In this document: piece by piece, positions 13,332 through 44,788 of the stretch | Numbering within the stretch: position 1 is the stretch's first letter | Layout of the letters: each line of letters opens with the position of its first letter | Assembly: GCA_026991575.1 (NCBI GenBank) | Contig: JALXBF010000016.1 | Location: forward strand, 1-64,000 | DNA length: 64,000 nucleotides | DNA from: Planctomycetota bacterium | Lineage (GTDB): Bacteria > Planctomycetota > Planctomycetia > JALXBF01 | Reading direction: 5' to 3' | Program-made: the position numbers and the translations under genes | Notes under the pieces: model-generated | The model's input: the letters and a program-made list of their open reading frames with translations, nothing else | What the model was told of the DNA's origin: nothing | The model's database searches: none

Positions 13332-14414
13332 ATGATGCGCTTTCGTCGTCAGGGATTTACCCTCATTGAGTTACTGGTTGTCATCGCCATCATCGCAGTG
13401 CTGATCGCGTTGTTGCTGCCGGCGGTGCAGATGGCGCGTGAGGCAGCACGGCGTGCCCAGTGCGCCAACAACCTCAAGCAGATTGGCCTGGCAATGCACA
13501 ATTACCACCAAGCCCACGGCTACTTCCCGCCGGAAGGCACGCGTGCCTACCGAGGCTGGAACCGCATCGTGGGGGTGGGCGGCGAGCAGCTCTGGAGCTT
13601 CAAGGTGTTCCTGCTGCCCTACCTCGATCGCGCCGATGTCTACAACGCCGCTAACCTCGACTTGCGCGCCTTCGGCGAGCCGTTAGGCAACTGGGGCAAC
13701 GACCCCAATGCCACGCTGCGACGCACGCGGATTGAGACCTACCTCTGCCCGTCCGATCCGCACTTCGACCACCGCAACCCCTATGCAACCGCTCAGAACT
13801 ACGCGCCCAACAACGGCACGGAACGCTACTTCAACAACTGGCGGACCAACGGTATCGCGTACCGCCCCGGGTGGGACTGGGCGTTCAACAAGCCGATTGG
13901 CATTCGTGACATCGTGGACGGTACCGCCTTCACGGCTGCGTTCTCTGAGTGGATCCGCGGTGGCATGCAGGGCCAGATGACGGCCGACCGGGGTGACGAG
14001 CTGGCCGTCGTCTGGGAGGGCCCGATCTGGTGGGCCGGCGGTTATGGCCGAAACGCCCAGCGTGAGGGCGACAAGTGGATGGAGCGTGAATGCGACCAGT
14101 CGACCCACTACTTCTGGGACTTCAAAGGGGAACTGTGGTGGCTGAGCATGATGGGCCGCGGAACCGGAATCGGCTTCTCCAAGCGACCGAATCACAAGAG
14201 CTGCATCGGTGTTGCCGGTGGTCAGCCGGTTATCCCGTGGGGTATTGCGGAGTTCAACGTCGCGCCGTCTAGCCTGCACCCGGGTGGCGTGAACGTGCTG
14301 TTCTGCGATGGTCGTGTCCGGTTCATCAGCGAGGACATCGACCAGCAGATCTGGTTCGCCATCGGGACACGCGATGGCCGCGAGCCGATCAGCGAAACCG
14401 ACCTCACTTTCTAA
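13332..14414 (+). CDS. DUF1559 family prepilin-type N-terminal cleavage/methylation protein (H-X9-DG C-terminus)
   Basis: [78 protein letters not shown]. Confidence 0.93.
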
Positions 14415-35215: not shown

Positions 35216-36907
35216 TCATGGCACAAGCTCGTAAAAGACCCCTCGTTTCTGGCCGCGCCGAACAAGCTTGCCCTGGTCCACCAGTTTAGCGAGCAGCCGC
35301 TTGGCCTGCGGACTGTTGATCCGGCACAGCTCCGCCGCTTCTCGCCGCGTGATCCGTCCATGAGCGCGCACGTAATCCAGAACCATTTGCTCCATCTGCT
35401 GGCCCTCGAAGCCCTTGACCCGGACGTAGGCCGCCTCCTCTCCCAGTCTGCGATACGTGGAAGCGGAGAGGTGGTACGCCCGACTTCGGCCCGTGCCTCG
35501 CGCCTCAATCAGGCCCGTCTCCACCAGCTGCTCCAGCACGGCCCGGGCTTCGCTTTCGGGCTTCTGAATGACCCTTGCCGTCTCTTGTGTCGTGATCCGG
35601 CGTTCCTGCCAGATGCTGTTGAGCGCCAGCAGTTCATCGAGACTCAAGGGCCGGCCCGCTTGCCCTTCTTCGGCGACGAGGCGGACGAACTTCAGGTTGG
35701 CTTTCCCCCCGTGAAGTACGAGCACGACGTTCTCCGGGCTGCTCCGTTCATAAGAGGGCGCGGGCCGGCCGTTGCGCAATTGCTCCTCGAAGATGATGTC
35801 GATGCCACGGCCCGTGCGCTCGACGACTCCGGCCCGCTTGAAGGCATCGGCCAATTGCGGATTGCGCGGCCGCGGCGGGGCCACCAACAGGTTGTCCAGG
35901 CGGATGCCTTCGGGGAAGCCACCGGGGTTCGAGATCTCGATGCGGTCCTTGTGCCACTGGACGTGCACCGCGCCCAAACGCGTGTAGTCCCGGTGAATCA
36001 AGGCGTTGGCCACCCCTTCCCGGAACGCCCGCTCGGGATAGTCCGGCACTCCAATCCGGATGAGCCCAACGGTGACTTCCTCCTCACGGTTCCGCGCACG
36101 AAATCGGGTGAGCATTTCCTCCATGATCCGCAGGAGCGGCCAGCGGAAGAACTCGTTGGCCCCCACACGCGTCCCCTCCAGCACTTGAAACGCCACCTCG
36201 TGCGTCGGTATGAGCCGCCGCAGAGCCTCTTCTTTGCCAAAGAGCAAGAGGCCCAACACGCGGACCGTCTTTACCTCATGATTGGCCTCTACGGCTCCGA
36301 GCGCTTTGGCCAGCTCCACATCGGGAAGGTCCAGAAGGCTCTGATCGCCCTGGCCGCGGCTCTCGCGAATGAAGCGCCGGAAGCGTTCAAACTCCAGAGG
36401 ATCCAGATCGCTCCAGGAAGCTTCCGGCACCGGGAGCATGGAATAGTCCAACGCGCCGCGATGGGCCAACGCTGCCTGCATCTCGTGGAAGTGGTAGGGC
36501 AAGCATTCGGGTTTTCCCGTGCCCCCAATCGCCCGCCGCTTGTACACGCCGTCGGCTGTCCCTACGGGCACCGTTGCTGGGGGAACTTCAATCACAAGAA
36601 CGGGCTTGCCCTCAAGCATGACCACTTCAGCGCGACAGCTTAGAGACGGGCGTGTCCGATTTGCGATCAAAGCTTGAATCCGTAAACGGTCTATGGTCCG
36701 GCCATGGCGAGGACGGGCGCCTGTCACGCGACCGTCATCCTCAACACCGACGAAGACGTACCCGATTTCGTTCGTCGGGCGGTTGGCCATGCATACGACC
36801 GCTTCGACGAGGTCGTTATCCGACAGTTGCCCCTTCTCCTCCCCTTTGAACTCCCGGGTGAGGCCCTCACCCTGCTCGATCAGCTCACGGAGTCTTTCCG
36901 GCGTCAT
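35216..36907 (-). CDS. AlbA_2 (Schlafen-like) domain + HATPase_c_4 (RecG C-terminal-like) + HTH protein
   Basis: GEGLTREFK, VCMAN..GYVFVGVEDDG, AFREGVANALIHRDY, IEISNPGGF, PRNPQLADAF, ERTGRGI, C-terminal wHTH (GRITRREAAELC). Confidence 0.88.
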   Translation of the reverse strand: MTPERLRELIEQGEGLTREFKGEEKGQLSDNDLVEAVVCMANRPTNEIGYVFVGVEDDGRVTGARPRHGRTIDRLRIQALIANRTRPSLSCRAEVVMLEGKPVLVIEVPPATVPVGTADGVYKRRAIGGTGKPECLPYHFHEMQAALAHRGALDYSMLPVPEASWSDLDPLEFERFRRFIRESRGQGDQSLLDLPDVELAKALGAVEANHEVKTVRVLGLLLFGKEEALRRLIPTHEVAFQVLEGTRVGANEFFRWPLLRIMEEMLTRFRARNREEEVTVGLIRIGVPDYPERAFREGVANALIHRDYTRLGAVHVQWHKDRIEISNPGGFPEGIRLDNLLVAPPRPRNPQLADAFKRAGVVERTGRGIDIIFEEQLRNGRPAPSYERSSPENVVLVLHGGKANLKFVRLVAEEGQAGRPLSLDELLALNSIWQERRITTQETARVIQKPESEARAVLEQLVETGLIEARGTGRSRAYHLSASTYRRLGEEAAYVRVKGFEGQQMEQMVLDYVRAHGRITRREAAELCRINSPQAKRLLAKLVDQGKLVRRGQKRGVFYELVP

Positions 36908-37519: not shown

Positions 37520-37955
37520 CGTTCCAACGGATCGGTGTTGGCGCAGTCGAAGCGGGAGCCGAACCGATCGGGCACCCTGCTTCAAACGGTCGGGCAGCCC
37601 CCTTCAAACACACGGGCAACCTGTTTCAAACGGACAAGCAGCCTGCTTCAGACGAGCCAGGGGGGGCGCTGCGCCCCCTGGCCGGAGATTGATTGGGTAG
37701 CGCGCGCGGTATCGCCGCATTTTTTCTTTTGGCCTGCCGCCGCGGTCGCAGACCGCGGCGGCAGGGCAGCGCCCTGGCGCCGTGCCGCAGGCACCATCCG
37801 CCCGCGGCACGGCCCAGAAAGGGTCCTCTCGAGCCGCCGCGCTAGCTGATCAACCGTGCCGATCGGAGGCACAAGTCTCCCCGCCTGCTGCAGCAAGCCA
37901 CCCGATCGATCGGCGGCCGAGTCCGTGAGATGCTCCGTCGTGCCGTGCGCGTCAT
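37520..37955 (+). repeat. repeat element copy 1 (uninterrupted)
   Basis: Homologous to 43160-43418 + 44371-44660 (shared ACCGATCGGGCA, GGTCGCAGACCGCGGCGGCAG, CACGGCCCAG, AGCAAGC..CCGATC.ATCGGC blocks). Confidence 0.75.
37570..37657 (+). repeat. tandem array, 4 x 22 bp (consensus GGGCAGCCTGCTTCAAACGGAC)
   Basis: gggcaccctgcttcaaacggtc / gggcagcccccttcaaacacac / gggcaacctgtttcaaacggac / aagcagcctgcttcagacgagc. Confidence 0.85.
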
Positions 37956-37998: not shown

Positions 37999-38027
37999 TT
38001 GACGCCGGGCGTGGGCCACGTGACAAT
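37999..38027 (+). promoter_or_regulatory. putative sigma70 promoter of the five-gene cassette
   Basis: TTGACG-17 nt-GACAAT, upstream of GGGAG RBS and ATG 38064. Confidence 0.5.
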
Positions 38028-38063
38028 AAGCTGGGTGACTAGCGAGGGCAGGGAGTAGGTCCG

Positions 38064-39261
38064 ATGCCACCCAGGACAACGCCAGAGCGTTTACCGCAAG
38101 TTGCCCTCTTAGTCGCACGTCTGTCTGTCTGTCTGTCTTTTCCTAGTCCTAGTCTGTTGCGCGGGGTGTAGTTCCGCAGCTAGTCCAGCCGACGAGGAGC
38201 GCCGCGCCACGGCCCGGGCGAGTGCGAATGAGGTCCGTGTGCGTCTGTTAGACTCGGTGGTGAACGAGGCAGCGCTAACTACGGAGTCGGCGGTTACTCT
38301 TCACTTTGTTTTCGTCAACGACGGGCCTGAGCCGGTCGCGGTCCGTTTGGCCGGCGTCAGCTCCGGGTGCTGCATTTCTGCTATAGAGACCAGTCCGGTC
38401 AAGCTGGCCCCGGAACAGGCGCGGCCCTACGCAGTCCGCGTGCGCGTTCCCGCCACGGCCGGAGAAGTGACTGGCTGGTGTCGCTTTGTAGCATCGACTC
38501 TGGCGGAACGGTCCCGCCGTGCCGCTGTTGCGTTGTTAGGCCGCTTCGAGGTTGCTGTTGTCGAACCGGTGGAATTGGTGGCGCTTGGGGCGCAGGGCGG
38601 GTCCAGAATGCTGGCATCCGGGCTCTGCGGTGATGTTGTCGCGTTGGCCGGCGAGCTACGAGTTCGAGGCGTTGTGACGGACGACCTGCCGGAGGAAGCC
38701 TCTGCCTACGATCTCAGAGTTGCTATTCCCGAAACAAAGTTGAAAGTGACGCGTTTCTTGGGACGACGGCGTATCGGGTCGCGCATCATCGAGTACCGCT
38801 GGGAAGTGCATGGCGAGGCCACCCTGCCTCCTGTGCCCGGTCCAACAGAGCCCATGGAAGTGGTGGTGGAGGCCAACGGACGCGACTTGGGGCGCACCTG
38901 GTTTGTCATGAGAGCCAAGTCGTGGTACCGGGTTGATCCTCGGTCGGTGCTCATCAAGTGCGACGGATCCGGGCGGGTACACCGTTTTGCGGTGGAGGTC
39001 CGCGGCGACGGCATTGCGTCGGAGAAACCGCCCGGCATCAGGACGACGGGTAGCGTGCGTGCGTCTGTTGCCGATGCTGAGCGTGGCAGGTGTGTGGTGC
39101 AGGGGACATTCGAGTGCGGGCAGGAGTCTACGGGCTACGCAGAGATTATCTTGCGAGTCGACTGGAGCAAGCAGCGATGTGTTAGAATACCGGTGTTGCA
39201 TCTACGCGTTCAGGGTCATGCGCGACCAGGTGGGGAGGGTGGACCGTCACTGGTCCGGTGA
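38064..39261 (+). pseudogene. Ig-like (DUF1573-like) lipoprotein, frameshifted at (GTCT)5 - possibly phase-OFF
   Basis: ATG 38064 frame stops at 38171. The main ORF frame (track 38239-39261) extends upstream through FLVLVCCAG|C with no ATG/GTG/TTG before a TAG at 38110. Removing one GTCT unit joins them. FVFVNDGPEPV..SSGCC..LAPEQ resembles DUF1573. Confidence 0.65.
38119..38138 (+). repeat. (GTCT)5 simple sequence repeat
   Basis: Five exact GTCT units inside a signal-peptide coding region. Confidence 0.9.
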
Positions 39262-39288
39262 AGCTGTGCCTGAGGAAAGGAGATGGCC

Positions 39289-40347
39289 ATGGTCCCGCGG
39301 GTACCTGCACAGCGCGATTTGAGGGGATGCTCGAGGGGGGTAGCCCTGGTCGAGCTGATGGTGGTCATTGGTGTGTTGCTCGTTTTGGCCTCCCTTCTGT
39401 TTCCGGCAGTGCAGCGGGCACGCGCCACGGTTCGGAGGATGCAGTGTGCTGCCAACCTGCGCGAGCTTGCGCTTGCGACGATACAGTATCACGATGCTAT
39501 GGGGTGCATGCCTCCGGAGACGCTGAGTTGGTGGGTGCAGCTGCGACCAGGTCTTTCTGGTCCCGCACGGGCCAGGCAATACAGTCCCCATACCCATTTG
39601 CTTCCCTGGCTGGGGCTATCTGCACTGTACAATGCGATCAACTTCACGTTGGACGGTTTTTCGGCGTCCCCGTTTCTGCTTGACACGTATGCGTTTCGTG
39701 CGAACCGGACTGTGCTGGAGACTCGTGTTTCTGTGTTTGTGTGTCCGGCTGACGGTGAAGCTGCGGTGGGGCCGTGCTTGTCGTACCGTGGGAACATGGG
39801 TTTACTGGATCCTGCGCCGACACGCCGTGGCTGGCCAGATAGTGGCCACGGGATGTTCCGGCGGCCGCCGGTCAGATTTGGGGAGGTGAGTGACGGGGTG
39901 GCGGTGACTGCCATGTATGCGGAGCGGCTGGTTGGCAGGCCTGCGGGTGTGGTCCGCGAGACTGGGTTACGGCGGGCGATGTTACGAGTGTGGACCGGGT
40001 CGAATGTACCGCGCCGGGCGGACCGTTGGGCGGCTGTCTGTGCCGCGGCGAGTCGTGTGCGGGGGCGGATGGAGAGAGCGGACTGGGGAGCGGGGCGGTA
40101 CTGGCTGCCGTCCACGGGCCGATTTGCGCTGTACAACCACGTACTGCGTCCGAATGCGGCGGTGTACGACTGCTATTTGCAAGACAATTTCGGTGCTTTC
40201 ACGGCACGGAGTGTGCATCCTGGTTCCGTGGTGAACGTTGCTTTTGGGGATGGTCATGTGAGAGCGATTTCGAGCTCGCTGGATCTTAGCATTTGGCGTG
40301 CTCTGGGGACACGAGATGGTGGCGAGCTGGTGGGGGAGGATTTCTGA
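39289..40347 (+). CDS. DUF1559 family prepilin-like protein (divergent)
   Basis: GVALVELMVVIGVLLVLASLLFPAVQRARATVRRMQCAANLREL, FVCPAD, SDG..T.M.AER, YNH.LRPN, HPG..NVAFGDGHV, WRALGTRDGGE. Confidence 0.9.
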   Translation: MVPRVPAQRDLRGCSRGVALVELMVVIGVLLVLASLLFPAVQRARATVRRMQCAANLRELALATIQYHDAMGCMPPETLSWWVQLRPGLSGPARARQYSPHTHLLPWLGLSALYNAINFTLDGFSASPFLLDTYAFRANRTVLETRVSVFVCPADGEAAVGPCLSYRGNMGLLDPAPTRRGWPDSGHGMFRRPPVRFGEVSDGVAVTAMYAERLVGRPAGVVRETGLRRAMLRVWTGSNVPRRADRWAAVCAAASRVRGRMERADWGAGRYWLPSTGRFALYNHVLRPNAAVYDCYLQDNFGAFTARSVHPGSVVNVAFGDGHVRAISSSLDLSIWRALGTRDGGELVGEDF

Positions 40348-40456
40348 CGGGGCGCAGTGTGGCCAGGTCGTTTGCGTTGTAGGTGGCGTTCTATGGGGTG
40401 CGTTGAGCAGGGTAGAAGGGGTTGCTCGGTTGTGGGATTGACGACGAGAGGAGGGG

Positions 40457-40882
40457 TTGCCATGTTGTACGCACGGGTACGTTCTTGGCTTCCGGCGATG
40501 CTGTGCTGGTCTGATGCTGACGGTTGTGGCCGTGTGGCCGTCGTGTGGGCTTGGGGAACCCATCGATGAGTCGGCGTTGCGTGCGCTGCGTGGAGGGGAT
40601 ACGTTCATTGGCCAGGCCGTCGAGACGTGCGATTCAAAGAACGGCTTTGGAGGTGGCTGTGACGTTCCAGGGGCACCGTGCAGCAAGTGCAGTGTCAGCT
40701 CAGGCGGGAAGCTCGTATTCGATGCGGCGGGACAGGGATGGCGGGTCATCGCGCAGTTTGACTGCGGATGGGTGAAAACAGGAACATGCCAGAATAACGT
40801 CTGTATCGCCACAGTTGTGACTCCCACCCCGTGCAAGGATTTGTTGCTGGTAGACCAGCAGCCTATCGATCCCGATCCATAG
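40457..40882 (+). CDS. secreted Cys-rich precursor with double-glycine-like leader motif
   Basis: Hydrophobic signal-like N-terminus, then IDESALRALRGG (GG at 40592-40597) and a 94-aa core with 8 Cys. Start codon uncertain. Confidence 0.7.
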   Translation: MPCCTHGYVLGFRRCCAGLMLTVVAVWPSCGLGEPIDESALRALRGGDTFIGQAVETCDSKNGFGGGCDVPGAPCSKCSVSSGGKLVFDAAGQGWRVIAQFDCGWVKTGTCQNNVCIATVVTPTPCKDLLLVDQQPIDPDP

Positions 40883-40934
40883 GCGTGCGTTGTTGGTAGA
40901 CAGTTGCGGTGTTGGGACGGGGAGGTGTGGGGCC

Positions 40935-42119
40935 ATGGGCGCCCGAGTAGTTTGTGATACGCGCTGGCGTGTGTTGCGCCGGGCTGCGGCGTTGCTTACA
41001 ACGTGCATCGGGTTCGTTACGTGTGCTGGAGCGCAGGAGTCCAGTGTAGCATGGGCCGTTCTGGATCGCGTGGTGGAGGCGTACCGAGACGTTTACGACC
41101 TGCGCTTTGAGTACGATGCGTGGGTCGACTTTGGTCAGGACGGCAGTGTCGAGCAGACGACGACGGGAAGTTTTCTGTTCCGCCTGCGCGAACGGACATA
41201 CCGTTGGGAGCAAAGGCACCAGCGGGAAGACGGTGGTCCAGGGATACATGCTATTCACAGTCTCTTGCGCGGGAGCTACAACCTTTACACCAAGCACGCG
41301 GATGCTGTGCAGGGAACGCTACACCGTGGTTCGCAGAAGAACATCTGGACGTGGGGTGCTGGCGTGATCAGTCCGCTCTTTGACCCTCTGCTAATTGATC
41401 GGAGTCGCTGCGTGGCGTTTCTGCTCGGAGAGGAGCGCGTTGGCTTGCGTAAGTGCGCGCACGTGGTGGTGATCCCAAGGGGCTACGTTACCGAGCAGCG
41501 GTACCACGAGTTAAAGGCGATGGCGGCGCGCGGCGAGGTGCCTGACGATAGGCTCGGGCACAACTACTGGGTCGATACGGCGAGAGGTACAGTGCTCCGG
41601 TACGAGACGGTCGCTCTCGGGTTGGGCCCGGACGGTTCACGCCGTCCGATCACGACGTTTATAACGCGGGCAACGGAAGTGCGACCGTTTCGGCAGGATG
41701 GTGTGGAGATATGGCTTGCTGTGGAGGCTGAGAATGTGTGCATGCCGATGAGGCGAGGGAACGCGGTGGTGGTACCGGGCTACATCGAGCGGATCGTGAT
41801 TGTACCAGACAGTGTGCAGATCAATCCGCGAGCGCCGGACGAGGCGTATGTGATTGAGCCTCCTCCGGGCACACGGTTACAAGAGGAGGGGGATGATACG
41901 CTGGTACGGCCGGATGCGGACGCGCCACCGGCCGAGAGTATAGCGGATCTTGTGCGTGTGACGGATCGGATGATCGAAGAGGCGGATCGGCAGTTGCGGG
42001 AGGAGGGCCTGGCCGTGGTGGCCCCGGGACATGGCGGTGTGTGGCGCTGGGCGGTGCTGGTTGCAGGAGTGGTCCTGATTGTCGTGGGGCTGTGGTTGCG
42101 CAAGGCCAGCGTGGGCTAA
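40935..42119 (+). CDS. secreted, C-terminally membrane-anchored hypothetical protein (possible LolA-like fold)
   Basis: Signal peptide (..FVTCAGA|QE), beta-rich body, VQINP..PDEAYVIEPPPGT, C-terminal TM WRWAVLVAGVVLIVVGLWLRK; GGAGGT RBS. Confidence 0.75.
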   Translation: MGARVVCDTRWRVLRRAAALLTTCIGFVTCAGAQESSVAWAVLDRVVEAYRDVYDLRFEYDAWVDFGQDGSVEQTTTGSFLFRLRERTYRWEQRHQREDGGPGIHAIHSLLRGSYNLYTKHADAVQGTLHRGSQKNIWTWGAGVISPLFDPLLIDRSRCVAFLLGEERVGLRKCAHVVVIPRGYVTEQRYHELKAMAARGEVPDDRLGHNYWVDTARGTVLRYETVALGLGPDGSRRPITTFITRATEVRPFRQDGVEIWLAVEAENVCMPMRRGNAVVVPGYIERIVIVPDSVQINPRAPDEAYVIEPPPGTRLQEEGDDTLVRPDADAPPAESIADLVRVTDRMIEEADRQLREEGLAVVAPGHGGVWRWAVLVAGVVLIVVGLWLRKASVG

Positions 42120-42202
42120 AGTGCTTTGCCAGGTTCTCGTGTGGCAAGGAAGGGGTGGTCGTACGCCGTCGCAACGTCGTGGCGTCGGTCGGAGTCCTGG
42201 GT

Positions 42203-42853
42203 ATGGCTCGACAGCCACGCATAGGCTTGCAGGTTGTGCTGGCTTTGGCGGTAGCAGTCTGTGCGAGGGCCACATGGTGCGAAGGTGCTTTACAGGAGCC
42301 AACACCACGTGAGCAGGTCGCACACTCTACCCAGCCAAGCCGGGTCAATTGCGCGGTGCGTTGTCTGTACATCTTGGGCGCGTGGCTGGGAGAGCACTGG
42401 ACGTTCGAGCAGGTGCTTGCTGCCTTTGACACAGGCCCTGCGGCGGGCGAGGTGTCCGTCGAAGAACTCGTCGAAGCTGCTGGCCGGCTCGGTGTCACAC
42501 TTAGGCCAGCGCGCATGACGGCACGCGAGGCCGCCAGGGTACGCAGCCCGCTTGTGTTGCTCATCCCGCCCCGCGTAGAAGGCAGGCCTGGCCACTTTGT
42601 GGTGGCTCGCCCCGTTGGGGGTAGGCATGACGCATGGCAGGTGCTCGATCCAGACGCTACCCCGATGCTCACCACCCCGCACAGCATTTTCGGCCGAGGC
42701 CAACTGGTCGTGCTGGTGCCGACGCGCCGGGCGGGGGCAGAGCTCGTTGTCGGCACAGTGATTGTCGCGGCAGTTCTTGCGGTTGTGGTCGGTTTCGCGT
42801 ACCGGCGTCAGCGTCGTCGCACGACGGCGACGACTGGACGCTGTGCGGTATAG
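42203..42853 (+). CDS. stand-alone peptidase C39-like protein with signal peptide and C-terminal TM anchor
   Basis: Q-x5-C (QPSRVNCAVRCL, Cys codon 42350), GHFVV, VLDP; C-terminal LVVGTVIVAAVLAVVVGFAYRRQRRR; no ABC domains. Confidence 0.8.
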   Translation: MARQPRIGLQVVLALAVAVCARATWCEGALQEPTPREQVAHSTQPSRVNCAVRCLYILGAWLGEHWTFEQVLAAFDTGPAAGEVSVEELVEAAGRLGVTLRPARMTAREAARVRSPLVLLIPPRVEGRPGHFVVARPVGGRHDAWQVLDPDATPMLTTPHSIFGRGQLVVLVPTRRAGAELVVGTVIVAAVLAVVVGFAYRRQRRRTTATTGRCAV

Positions 42854-43207
42854 TCGGCGCTTGCCCGGCGTGCCGAACGGCAGGACCCGGGGCCGGACGC
42901 AAGGTGGCCTGGGGTTGGCATCAGTGCAACCGTGGCTGGGCCGCTGTCTTGTTCCTCGTCGCTGCCCTACGGCGCGCTTATGGCGGGCAGTTTTCCCTGG
43001 GACCAACGGGAGTCCATCCCACGCTGTGGCGGGTCAAGAACCGGGTAACTGCAATGGCTGAATCGCTTCCGGTTGGGCCGGAGCGTTTCATCCTTTTGCG
43101 CCGGGACCGGCGGGCCGGGCCGGCCGTTTGGCGTCGCGTTGAGCGAGCGGGTGAGTAGGTTTCCGGCGTGGTGTTGGGGAGCAGGCGAACCGGGAACCGG
43201 ACCGATC

Positions 43208-43405
43208 GGGCAGCCTACTTCAAACGCATGGGCAGGCTGGTTCGAACGCACGGGCGGGCCGCTTGAGCCGGACAGGTGGCTTGGCCCAGGCCGACGGGCA
43301 GTTTTCTTCCAACGCACGGGCGGCTTGCTTCAAATGGACGGGTGCCTTGGCTCGAACGGGCGGGCAGTGTCCTTGAAACCGGTGGGCGGGTTGCTTCAAA
43401 CGGGC
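43208..43405 (+). repeat. tandem array, 9 x 22 bp degenerate
   Basis: Exact 22-nt periodicity: gggcagcctacttcaaacgcat, gggcaggctggttcgaacgcac ... gggcgggttgcttcaaacgggc. Confidence 0.85.
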
Positions 43406-44370: not shown

Positions 44371-44788
44371 TTCCTGGCCGGGGGTTGACTGGGTGGCGCC
44401 GGCGGTATCTTGTCGCTCTTCTGGCCCTGCCCCTGCCGCCGTGGTCGCAGACCGCGGCGGCAGAGCAGCGTCGCGGTGCCGTCCGCACGCAGCACCCGCC
44501 CGCGACACGGCCCAGGAAGAAGCTTTCTTCATCTACTGCGCCATTCAGTCAACCTTGTGGGCGGGGGGCGTGGAGCTCCTCGTGCTGCCCGTCGTTGAAG
44601 CAAGCGGCCGATCTATCGGCCTCCAAGTGCGCGAAATGCTCGGCTGTCGTGACAAGCGTCCCAATGGCCGTCTCGCCGGCACACGCGGCGAGCGACCGAC
44701 CGGTGGTAGAGTGGGCGCAAGAGCTGGAACGCACCCGTGCTGCAACAGGGGAAGCGCACCTTTCGTCGAATTCGGCTTGTCGGGTCCA

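Follow-up and report, generated by a model that had tools for sequence, protein, structure and literature searches.

Double-glycine leaders are treated as cytoplasmic signals tied to export by ATP-binding cassette (ABC) transporters, and to our knowledge all characterised double-glycine cleavage is cytoplasmic. In the PCAT/AMS exporters (ComA, PCAT1 and the LahT-type proteins), the C39 peptidase is fused to ABC domains, and the substrate carries its leader at the very N-terminus, with no Sec signal. Here we analyze a five-gene cassette from a planctomycete (contig JALXBF010000016.1 of assembly GCA_026991575.1, of which the first 64,000 nucleotides are referred to as the window), whose C39 peptidase stands alone with its own signal and C-terminal transmembrane (TM) anchor, and whose precursor carries its leader behind a signal-like helix. 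The C39 fold, the Cys-His-Asp triad, and a leader with hydrophobic residues at −12, −7 and −4 and a GG, GA or GS end are shared with the PCAT/AMS exporters, whereas the cassette cargo is a Cys-rich domain of 65–170 aa and the oxyanion Gln is mostly absent from the anchored C39s. The proposed processing works like PCAT leader cleavage, yet the system is not a PCAT, having no ABC domain and an internal leader. We consider it probable that, in planctomycete cassettes of this kind, maturation of a variable secreted protein rich in disulfides takes place outside the inner membrane.

Exported C39s have a precedent in FapD of the Pseudomonas Fap amyloid system (PMC5557850). Two papers place FapD in the periplasm, report that the Sec substrates encoded beside it are secreted only if its Cys is present, give its own substrate as undetermined and possibly a machinery protein, and describe the Fap proteins as having no canonical leader (PMC5557850, PMC6173800). 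FapD and the window C39 are both stand-alone and signal-bearing (for the latter, from hydropathy only), but the Fap system encodes the FapF barrel and an amyloid cargo of repeat-containing subunits, whereas the neighbours here are a DUF1573-like protein, a DUF1559 protein, an 8-Cys cargo and a LolA-fold protein. The window C39 gives no match to the FapD model NF058616 at 1e-3; class II planctomycete C39s reach 1e-21 to 1e-27 with this model and branch apart from the anchored C39s. FilB (NCBIfam NF050078), a C39 tied to a pilus-like locus by its model name alone, gives no match to the window C39 either; one of the eight anchored C39s scanned reached E 6e-4, far below the cut-off, and a literature search on FilB found no paper. 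Eight signal-bearing C39s without a TM (L037, L039–L043, L047 and L053) resemble FapD and FilB, and the five of them that were scanned fell below both cut-offs. On the DUF1559 side, the available text of PMC8567305 reports an expansion of N_methyl + SBP_bac_10 (DUF1559) proteins in Planctomycetales, without a function and often flanked by genes for proteins with type I or type II signal peptides; their architecture is that of the window DUF1559 protein, and C39 is not mentioned in that paper. The corresponding portion of PMC3482391 mentions C39-like toxin domains only. No description of this cassette was found in the open-access literature searched.

If correct, our reading would offer an experimental handle on DUF1559 and DUF1573 proteins and supply the matched enzyme–substrate pairs that FapD lacks. 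An outward-facing C39 clade whose canonical leaders stand behind Sec-type signals would extend the rule for double-glycine leaders, and a large pool of unannotated disulfide-rich proteins is indicated.

Co-occurrence of the leader and the anchored C39

An earlier note on the window, made from its letters alone, had proposed five co-oriented genes that include an 8-Cys precursor with a double-glycine leader and a stand-alone C39-like peptidase, and no ABC transporter or tailoring enzyme. These elements are borne out (Table 1): there is no ABC or tailoring gene within the five-gene cluster, and the 216-aa product of gene 5, which is not fused to ABC domains, matches Peptidase_C39 (PF03412) at 28.4 bits against a Pfam cut-off of 22, has a C39 cluster as its first Atlas match (score 0.94), and keeps the catalytic Cys (42350), His (42593) and Asp (42647). 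The eight Cys of the precursor follow IDESALRALRGG, which has the hydrophobic −12, −7 and −4 residues and G-G/A/S end of the leader consensus and is predicted to be helical. The consensus behind our scoring rules, including its LS-x-x-E-L positions, is what we take double-glycine leaders to follow; signals were judged throughout from hydropathy and by eye.

In the model of the cargo (pLDDT 87, pTM 0.69), the leader is a helix and the body consists largely of beta structure. The model gave no Foldseek match at E ≤ 0.001, a best VIA Z of 2.0 and a best Atlas score of 0.78, and 0 of 50 cargos tested reach a Pfam or NCBIfam cut-off, which does not prove a new fold. Of the eight Cys, six never vary and two hardly ever do across 19 aligned cargos; together they would form four disulfides in the small, beta-rich predicted fold. 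When the protease–precursor complex was modelled, as the earlier note had suggested, the pair scored 0.47 against 0.00 for the best control, with at least 51% of contacts shared between runs and a partner pLDDT of at least 67. The mark used is reached by 116/157 solved and 2/215 mismatched pairs, with only 18 solved pairs and both mismatches lying between it and 0.60, and the signal may reflect likeness, because C39–leader complexes are already solved. The modelling lends weak support to the pairing.

The association was weighed by comparing loci across the class, in which 68 of 151 genomes have PF03412 matches. We hand-picked 80 C39 loci (79 from the PF03412 search and one other), leaving out the ten top ABC-like rows, those of the window's own genome (G000) and most weak or partial rows, and sorted them from the C39 protein alone into 58 with signal, C39 and TM (class I), eight FapD-like, eight signal-less, five multi-TM and one HlyB-type. 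As controls, 60 DUF1573 loci were hand-picked from the 150 listed of 238 matches in 34 genomes, a choice that favoured lower scores and avoided known C39 matches. With one filter for small, signal-bearing, Cys-rich, co-oriented open reading frames (ORFs), a candidate cargo was found at 41/58 class I loci, 2/22 loci with other C39 types and 19/59 C39-less controls. A strict leader rule was matched by 20/41, 0/2 and 0/19 of these, respectively; a medium rule by 25/41 class I versus 2/19 control cargos (shuffles: mean 4.3, maximum 10), and a relaxed rule by 32/41 versus 5/19. No leader-bearing cargo was seen at the 22 loci with other C39 types, and the sixtieth control (L164), where a leader was present, proved on inspection to have a C39 too, one not picked up by the Pfam search. 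Positions outside the rule also fit the consensus, with S at −11 in 13/25 and E, D or Q at −8 in 16/25. The strict leaders span 18 genomes in seven families, stand behind a hydrophobic segment in all members rather than at the very N-terminus, and are carried by cargos that share no Pfam or NCBIfam family and have varied Cys patterns. Lineage alone fails to explain the split, because seven genomes hold both anchored-C39 loci with leaders and C39-less, leaderless loci. Signal-bearing ORFs with a GG motif are thus present in homologous clusters, whose lack of them the earlier note had named as refuting. Judged from sequence, the leader tag and the anchored C39 tend to be gained and lost as a pair in many planctomycete genomes.

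Several observations weigh against a strict pairing. Seventeen of the 58 anchored-C39 loci have no candidate cargo by the filter (looser searches recovered three), 9/41 cargos do not satisfy the relaxed rule either (in six, the segment that was scored had been truncated at a Cys), and two strict matches (L060 and L095) are off-register or doubtful. The leader rules were written after both sets had been seen, so the Fisher p of 8e-5 overstates the case, the rules not being blind, the loci being hand-picked and kin not being independent. In a related genome, G001, an orphan locus (C393) has two leader-type cargos with no C39 or LolA-like gene seen, and C166 has a leader-type cargo without a visible C39 at a locus cut off by the end of the contig. 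Beyond the class, the anchored-C39 clade profile finds matches in 50 of 121 genomes of the phylum; the 26 such loci viewed at ±1.5 kb are mostly ABC-fused or Gln-bearing, L336 alone looking anchored-type, and none of the 26 has a strict-leader cargo.

Paralogous cassettes put the same cargo in both settings. Four copies of this cassette type occur in G000, of which only the window copy has a C39. Those on C139 and C33 encode paralogs of the cargo (45% and 41%) in which an AxA site stands directly before the DT start, and that on C122 has no recognisable cargo. G001 has both a full ortholog with leader and C39 (C431, L033), whose cargo has a stop in the signal, and an AxA|DT cargo (C87); no C39 was found in the fetched regions of C139, C33 and G001:C87. 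At L177 an undamaged cassette combines a C39 with two leader-type cargos, so that a leader with an adjacent C39 is seen in the window, at G001:C431 and at L177. In the leaderless paralogs the AxA site lies exactly where the GG lies, and the predicted mature N-terminus is DT in both, which independently marks the N-terminus that the earlier note had predicted. We infer that one N-terminus is reached by two routes, through a GG leader with a C39 or through AxA without one. A search of 1.84 billion representatives gave 15 relatives, of which 14 were read (including P0010) and the 1963-aa P0021 was left out; distant relatives carry leaders, suggesting that the leader is ancestral and was lost together with the protease.

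These patterns bear on whether the leader and the C39 are merely co-inherited, the segment being a spacer and the protease acting on the LolA-like, DUF1559 or another cassette protein. A machinery substrate would have a parallel in what has been suggested for FapD, and no cargo is seen at some anchored-C39 loci. Against this, the motif persists on cargos with no common family and with varied Cys patterns, the leader is present or absent together with the C39 within a single cargo family, and seven other genomes contain both states; we regard simple co-inheritance as distinctly improbable.

At least 12 more cassettes were noticed in G000, on C6, C33, C54, C63, C64, C74, C92, C104, C118, C129 and C151 (L007, L009–L019). 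They encode unrelated small, Cys-rich secreted proteins with C-terminally anchored partners, in tandem cargo–partner repeats on C63 and C74, and leaders occur only on C118 and C74, both with C39s.

Catalysis, topology and the proposed pathway

The anchored C39s keep Cys in 64/67, His in 65/67 and Asp/Glu in 64/67 domains, and their clade profile matches the ComA peptidase domain (5xe8/3k8u) at E 1e-22 and 6mpz at 2e-20. The main point against plain catalysis by these proteins is the loss of the oxyanion-hole Gln, which we take to lie six residues before the Cys: it is kept in just 4/67 anchored C39s, against 13/13 C39s of classes II and IV, and is present in the window C39 and absent from its G001 ortholog. 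An anchored C39 that binds the leader without cutting it, or cuts it poorly, could be an HlyB-like periplasmic receptor or holdase handing cargo to the LolA-like protein. In addition to the loss of Gln in 63/67 domains, this would suit the −1 residue, which is often not G, A or S (R, Q, D, K and L are seen), and non-catalytic C39-like domains are known (PMC5557850). However, Cys, His and Asp/Glu have been retained over long branches whereas the HlyB-type control (L078) has lost both Cys and His, and the leaderless paralogs place their AxA site at the very position of the GG. We therefore consider binding with little or no cutting unlikely, and cleavage after the GG by the anchored C39 a probable prediction.

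By hydropathy, an upstream signal-like segment is present in 56/59 anchored C39s and a downstream TM in 50/59, followed by net positive charge in 47/50, which by the positive-inside rule places the catalytic domain in the periplasm; a periplasm-facing topology is thus predicted. The converse arrangement would be PCAT-like processing in the cytoplasm, with the N-terminal helix of the cargo as a reverse anchor or targeting element, the C39 facing inward and an unlinked exporter. Cytoplasmic cleavage is the only kind so far characterised, and topology here comes from hydropathy only, but such an arrangement does not sit well with the signal-like segments and charge distribution, with a cargo leader placed behind a signal-like helix, or with the C39 domains of G000, in which a Walker A motif is found in 0/6 and none of which is ABC-fused. 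We rate it as very improbable. Loss of the triad or a cytoplasmic protease, either of which would have contradicted the earlier note, is therefore not what these proteins suggest, and comparative evidence (co-occurrence, triad and predicted topology) gives good support to its view that the GG/C39 logic now operates beyond the inner membrane.

In a quick-method C39 tree, class I falls on one side of a branch with SH-aLRT 86, and the FapD-like class stands apart (97). Several anchored members are fused to DUF1573, and tandem C39 domains in one frame or adjacent C39 fusion genes were seen at G002:C123 (L066), G022:C1:6153000-6154000 (L045) and G000:C74. The stand-alone C39s with a multi-TM N-terminus (L055, L073, L077, L103 and L107) and the signal-less ones (L071, L085, L093, L098, L106, L109, L110 and L113) have no cassette neighbours.

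In the pathway that we propose, the cargo would be exported via its hydrophobic N-terminal signal, most likely by Sec. The membrane-anchored C39 would then bind the amphipathic leader helix in the periplasm and cut after the GG, freeing the N-terminus DT; cassettes without a C39 would reach the same N-terminus through the AxA signal-peptidase site. The C39 may trim a pro-peptide left by signal peptidase I or may itself release the cargo from an uncleaved anchor. There is a hint of the latter in the cargo sequences: AxA near the h-region occurs in 4/21 leader-type against 11/21 leaderless cargos (p 0.05). With a broader [AVS]xA test, from which five loci with doubtful strict matches were left out, the figures are 9/21 and 14/21 (p 0.21), and h-region length does not differ.

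The four-gene core

The counts of neighbouring genes put the C39 in perspective. LolA-like genes, found by an iterated profile that had not converged after six rounds, occur at 35/58 class I and 9/19 leaderless-cargo loci, compared with 2/40 other DUF1573 loci and 0/22 other C39 loci; for DUF1559 genes the corresponding figures are 40/58, 16/19, 5/40 and 1/22. DUF1573 genes are found at 34/58 class I loci and at 19/19 leaderless-cargo loci, the latter by selection. From these counts, the constant core consists of cargo, LolA-like, DUF1573 and DUF1559 genes, and the C39 with its leader is an optional add-on rather than the heart of the system. A partnership of the core genes is inferred from their linkage.

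The product of gene 4 had been described as TM-anchored and beta-rich, which is correct and can be specified further. Its C-terminal anchor is confirmed, and the model (pLDDT 82, pTM 0.80) is a half-open beta-barrel of the LolA superfamily (LolA, P. gingivalis LolA3, DUF1329, RseB/MucB), with 62 Foldseek matches at E ≤ 0.001. Z scores to 3bk5, 9tp6 and 4z48 are 15.3, 15.2 and 15.1 (rmsd 3.2–3.5, ~204 aligned; VIA gives Z 15.3, rmsd 3.3 and 205 aligned for 3bk5). The protein differs from the superfamily in its ~10% identity, its C-terminal TM tether and the adjoining gene for a non-lipoprotein cargo, and a LolA-like fold alone shows no function. Neither this protein nor the product of gene 3 has a match among Pfam and NCBIfam families.

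The DUF1559 protein, which the earlier note called prepilin-like, is secure as to family (PF07596 at E 6e-31; TIGR04294 at 20.7 against a cut-off of 19) and less so as to its pilin character. N_methyl reaches 17.2 of the 21.2 bits needed, TIGR02532 likewise stays below its cut-off, and likeness to solved pilins is confined to the N-terminal helix region. The protein has a class III-like signal (G|VALVE, with Gly at −1, Glu at +5 and Val at +1), an H-X9-DG C-terminus and the subgroup motif RRGWPDSG. Linkage of the cassette to one DUF1559 subgroup, also put forward in that note, is true only in part: cassette copies cluster in the DUF1559 tree (16 changes against 51.8 when shuffled; FastTree, 160 rows), but at least four changes are forced, so that a single subgroup or clade was rejected. 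There was no C39 at 157 generic DUF1559 loci, many of them short (82/159 are at least 8 kb), and a search of public contigs with a DUF1559 alignment yielded a single additional full cassette among loci that were largely generic. G000 has 34 DUF1559 matches, which, with the Atlas cluster of the C39, point to a planctomycete host; a second, more typical DUF1559 gene lies in the window itself at 13428-14348, with 31% identity to the cassette protein.

Gene 1 was said to encode an Ig-like lipoprotein. Its orthologs bear a lipobox, it is 44% identical to two G001 copies, and a profile built from the DUF1573 copies of G000 matches it; its score against DUF1573 (PF07610) is 15.7 bits, below the cut-off of 26.1, and in the window copy the lipobox lies outside the frame of the start, as described below.

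How these proteins might act together is speculative: the LolA-fold, Ig-like lipoprotein and DUF1559 proteins may receive, carry, display or export the cargo. The four secretin and two A24 matches in G000, none inside the cassette, allow a pilus route and do not show one. A more far-reaching version makes the core an undescribed envelope pathway for hypervariable disulfide-rich proteins, in which the C39 would be a private signal peptidase, the LolA-fold protein would pass cargo to a DUF1559 pseudopilin on a type II secretion or type IV pilus (T2SS/T4P) machine, and repeats would switch cassettes; this is possible, but we consider it doubtful. If true, it would for the first time assign a function to some DUF1559 and DUF1573 proteins and a defined class of substrates to an extracytoplasmic C39. 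The cargo itself could, speculatively, be an antagonist, an adhesin or a surface coat, an interaction role being favoured because of the many copies, rapid loss and sequence diversity.

A GT-C glycosyltransferase gene accompanies 7/58 and a MauE gene 9/58 class I loci. Recurrent accessory genes, such as PMT_2 at L059, L060, L159 and L169, MauE at L092 and thioredoxin at L137, hint that some cassettes involve glycosylation, redox handling or acylation in the periplasm. Lipidation of the cargo by a cassette Lnt was considered and dropped, Lnt-like genes being found at just two loci (L088 and L163).

Frameshifts, repeats and surroundings of the window copy

Two of the five genes are out of frame in the window copy, a point missed by the earlier note and one that weighs against taking this copy as a working example; the other three genes are intact. 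In gene 1, the ATG behind a Shine–Dalgarno (SD) sequence at 38064 is out of frame with the lipobox-like LVLVCCAGC, and a GTCT x5 run lies between them. No ATG, GTG or TTG stands in frame upstream of the lipobox, the first in-frame standard start being 38239, downstream of it; the cassette can accordingly be given as 38064/38239-42853. In the precursor, reading from the SD-ATG at 40462 goes out of frame where a pentamer occurs in two units (40499-40508), and the sole in-frame start is a TTG 2 nt from the SD. The claim that each product has an export signal hence does not stand in the form given by the earlier note, the SD-ATG of gene 1 and of the precursor being out of frame with the signal region. 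Because two genes are out of frame, this copy probably makes no normal lipoprotein or cargo.

Contigs from sequencing run X1 show no differences from the window. An assembly error behind the frameshifts is unsupported, the X1 contigs matching the window, with X1 being source-like and possibly the source, hence not independent. In a related strain, a contig of run X2 (depth 16.7; coverage excludes 38021-38434) has one extra pentamer unit and thereby an in-frame precursor allele, and among database proteins P0010 is the in-frame form with the extra unit and P0009 the window's form. The window copy looks to be an out-of-frame allele, apparently switched off by repeat slippage.

Whether this is reversible phase variation or the decay of a dispensable cassette is about equally likely. 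Decay would fit two separate lesions within one copy, a pentamer repeat of only two units, the breakage of other precursors where no repeat is involved (L033 has a stop in its signal, and L034 and L036 are frameshifted) and the lack of mixed alleles among X1 contigs, which drop rare variants. On the side of phase variation, the other three genes of the copy are intact, in-frame and out-of-frame precursor alleles are both found in nature, and repeats are concentrated near such genes: of 23 simple repeats in G000, 9 are no more than 3 kb from a gene of the C39, LolA-like or DUF1573 type (3.4% of the genome), and in all 4/4 G000 copies of this cassette type a simple repeat stands at the 5' end of the first gene, some of these having been spotted by eye before the count was made. 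Cassettes of this type exist in several copies, turn over quickly and begin with simple repeats at the 5' end. The GTCT run is the only tetranucleotide run of at least four units found in G000, and similar runs are present in both G001 orthologs of gene 1. As a separate observation, the concentration of repeats at cassette 5' ends would suit contingency loci. In G001, three of five cargo genes are broken (those at L033, L034 and L036 mentioned above), with intact neighbours.

Table 1. Features of the cassette and their positions in the window
Feature	Position	Strand	Basis or remark
Sigma-70-like match	37999..38027	+	9/12 match, chance level
Gene 1, Ig-like/DUF1573-like lipoprotein	38064..39261	+	Lipobox Cys codon 38167; orthologs with lipobox Cys
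GTCT x5 simple repeat in the signal-coding region of gene 1	38119..38138	+	
DUF1559 (SBP_bac_10) prepilin-like protein	39283..40347	+	Pfam/TIGRFAM profiles, sequence motifs
Precursor of a 94-aa, 8-Cys domain, with hydrophobic signal and double-glycine pro-segment	40457..40882	+	
Double-glycine leader IDESALRALRGG	40562..40597	+	Predicted helix; predicted cut before 40598 (mature start)
Signal, LolA-superfamily domain, Pro-rich linker and C-terminal TM anchor	40935..42119	+	Structure prediction
Stand-alone C39 peptidase with signal, C-terminal TM and then RRQRRR	42206..42853	+	Pfam, catalytic residues

The earlier note had also placed the five genes behind a shared promoter-like element. This did not hold up: the match at 37999 was rejected as a promoter, two such matches being found against 0.9 ± 1.0 in shuffles. 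The cassette is flanked by an EF-G-like gene and an AlbA_2/HTH gene on one side and by the S10 ribosomal operon on the other. Degenerate 22-nt tandem repeats lie on either side of it (37569-37654 and 43207-43402), as does a further shared element (~37677-37821 and 44373-44519); the flanking repeats are probably dispersed, because they also align with run X1 contigs from other places. The AlbA_2/HTH gene, which separates the EF-G-like gene from the cassette (35216-36907, − strand), combines AlbA_2, HATPase_c_4 and winged-helix domains.

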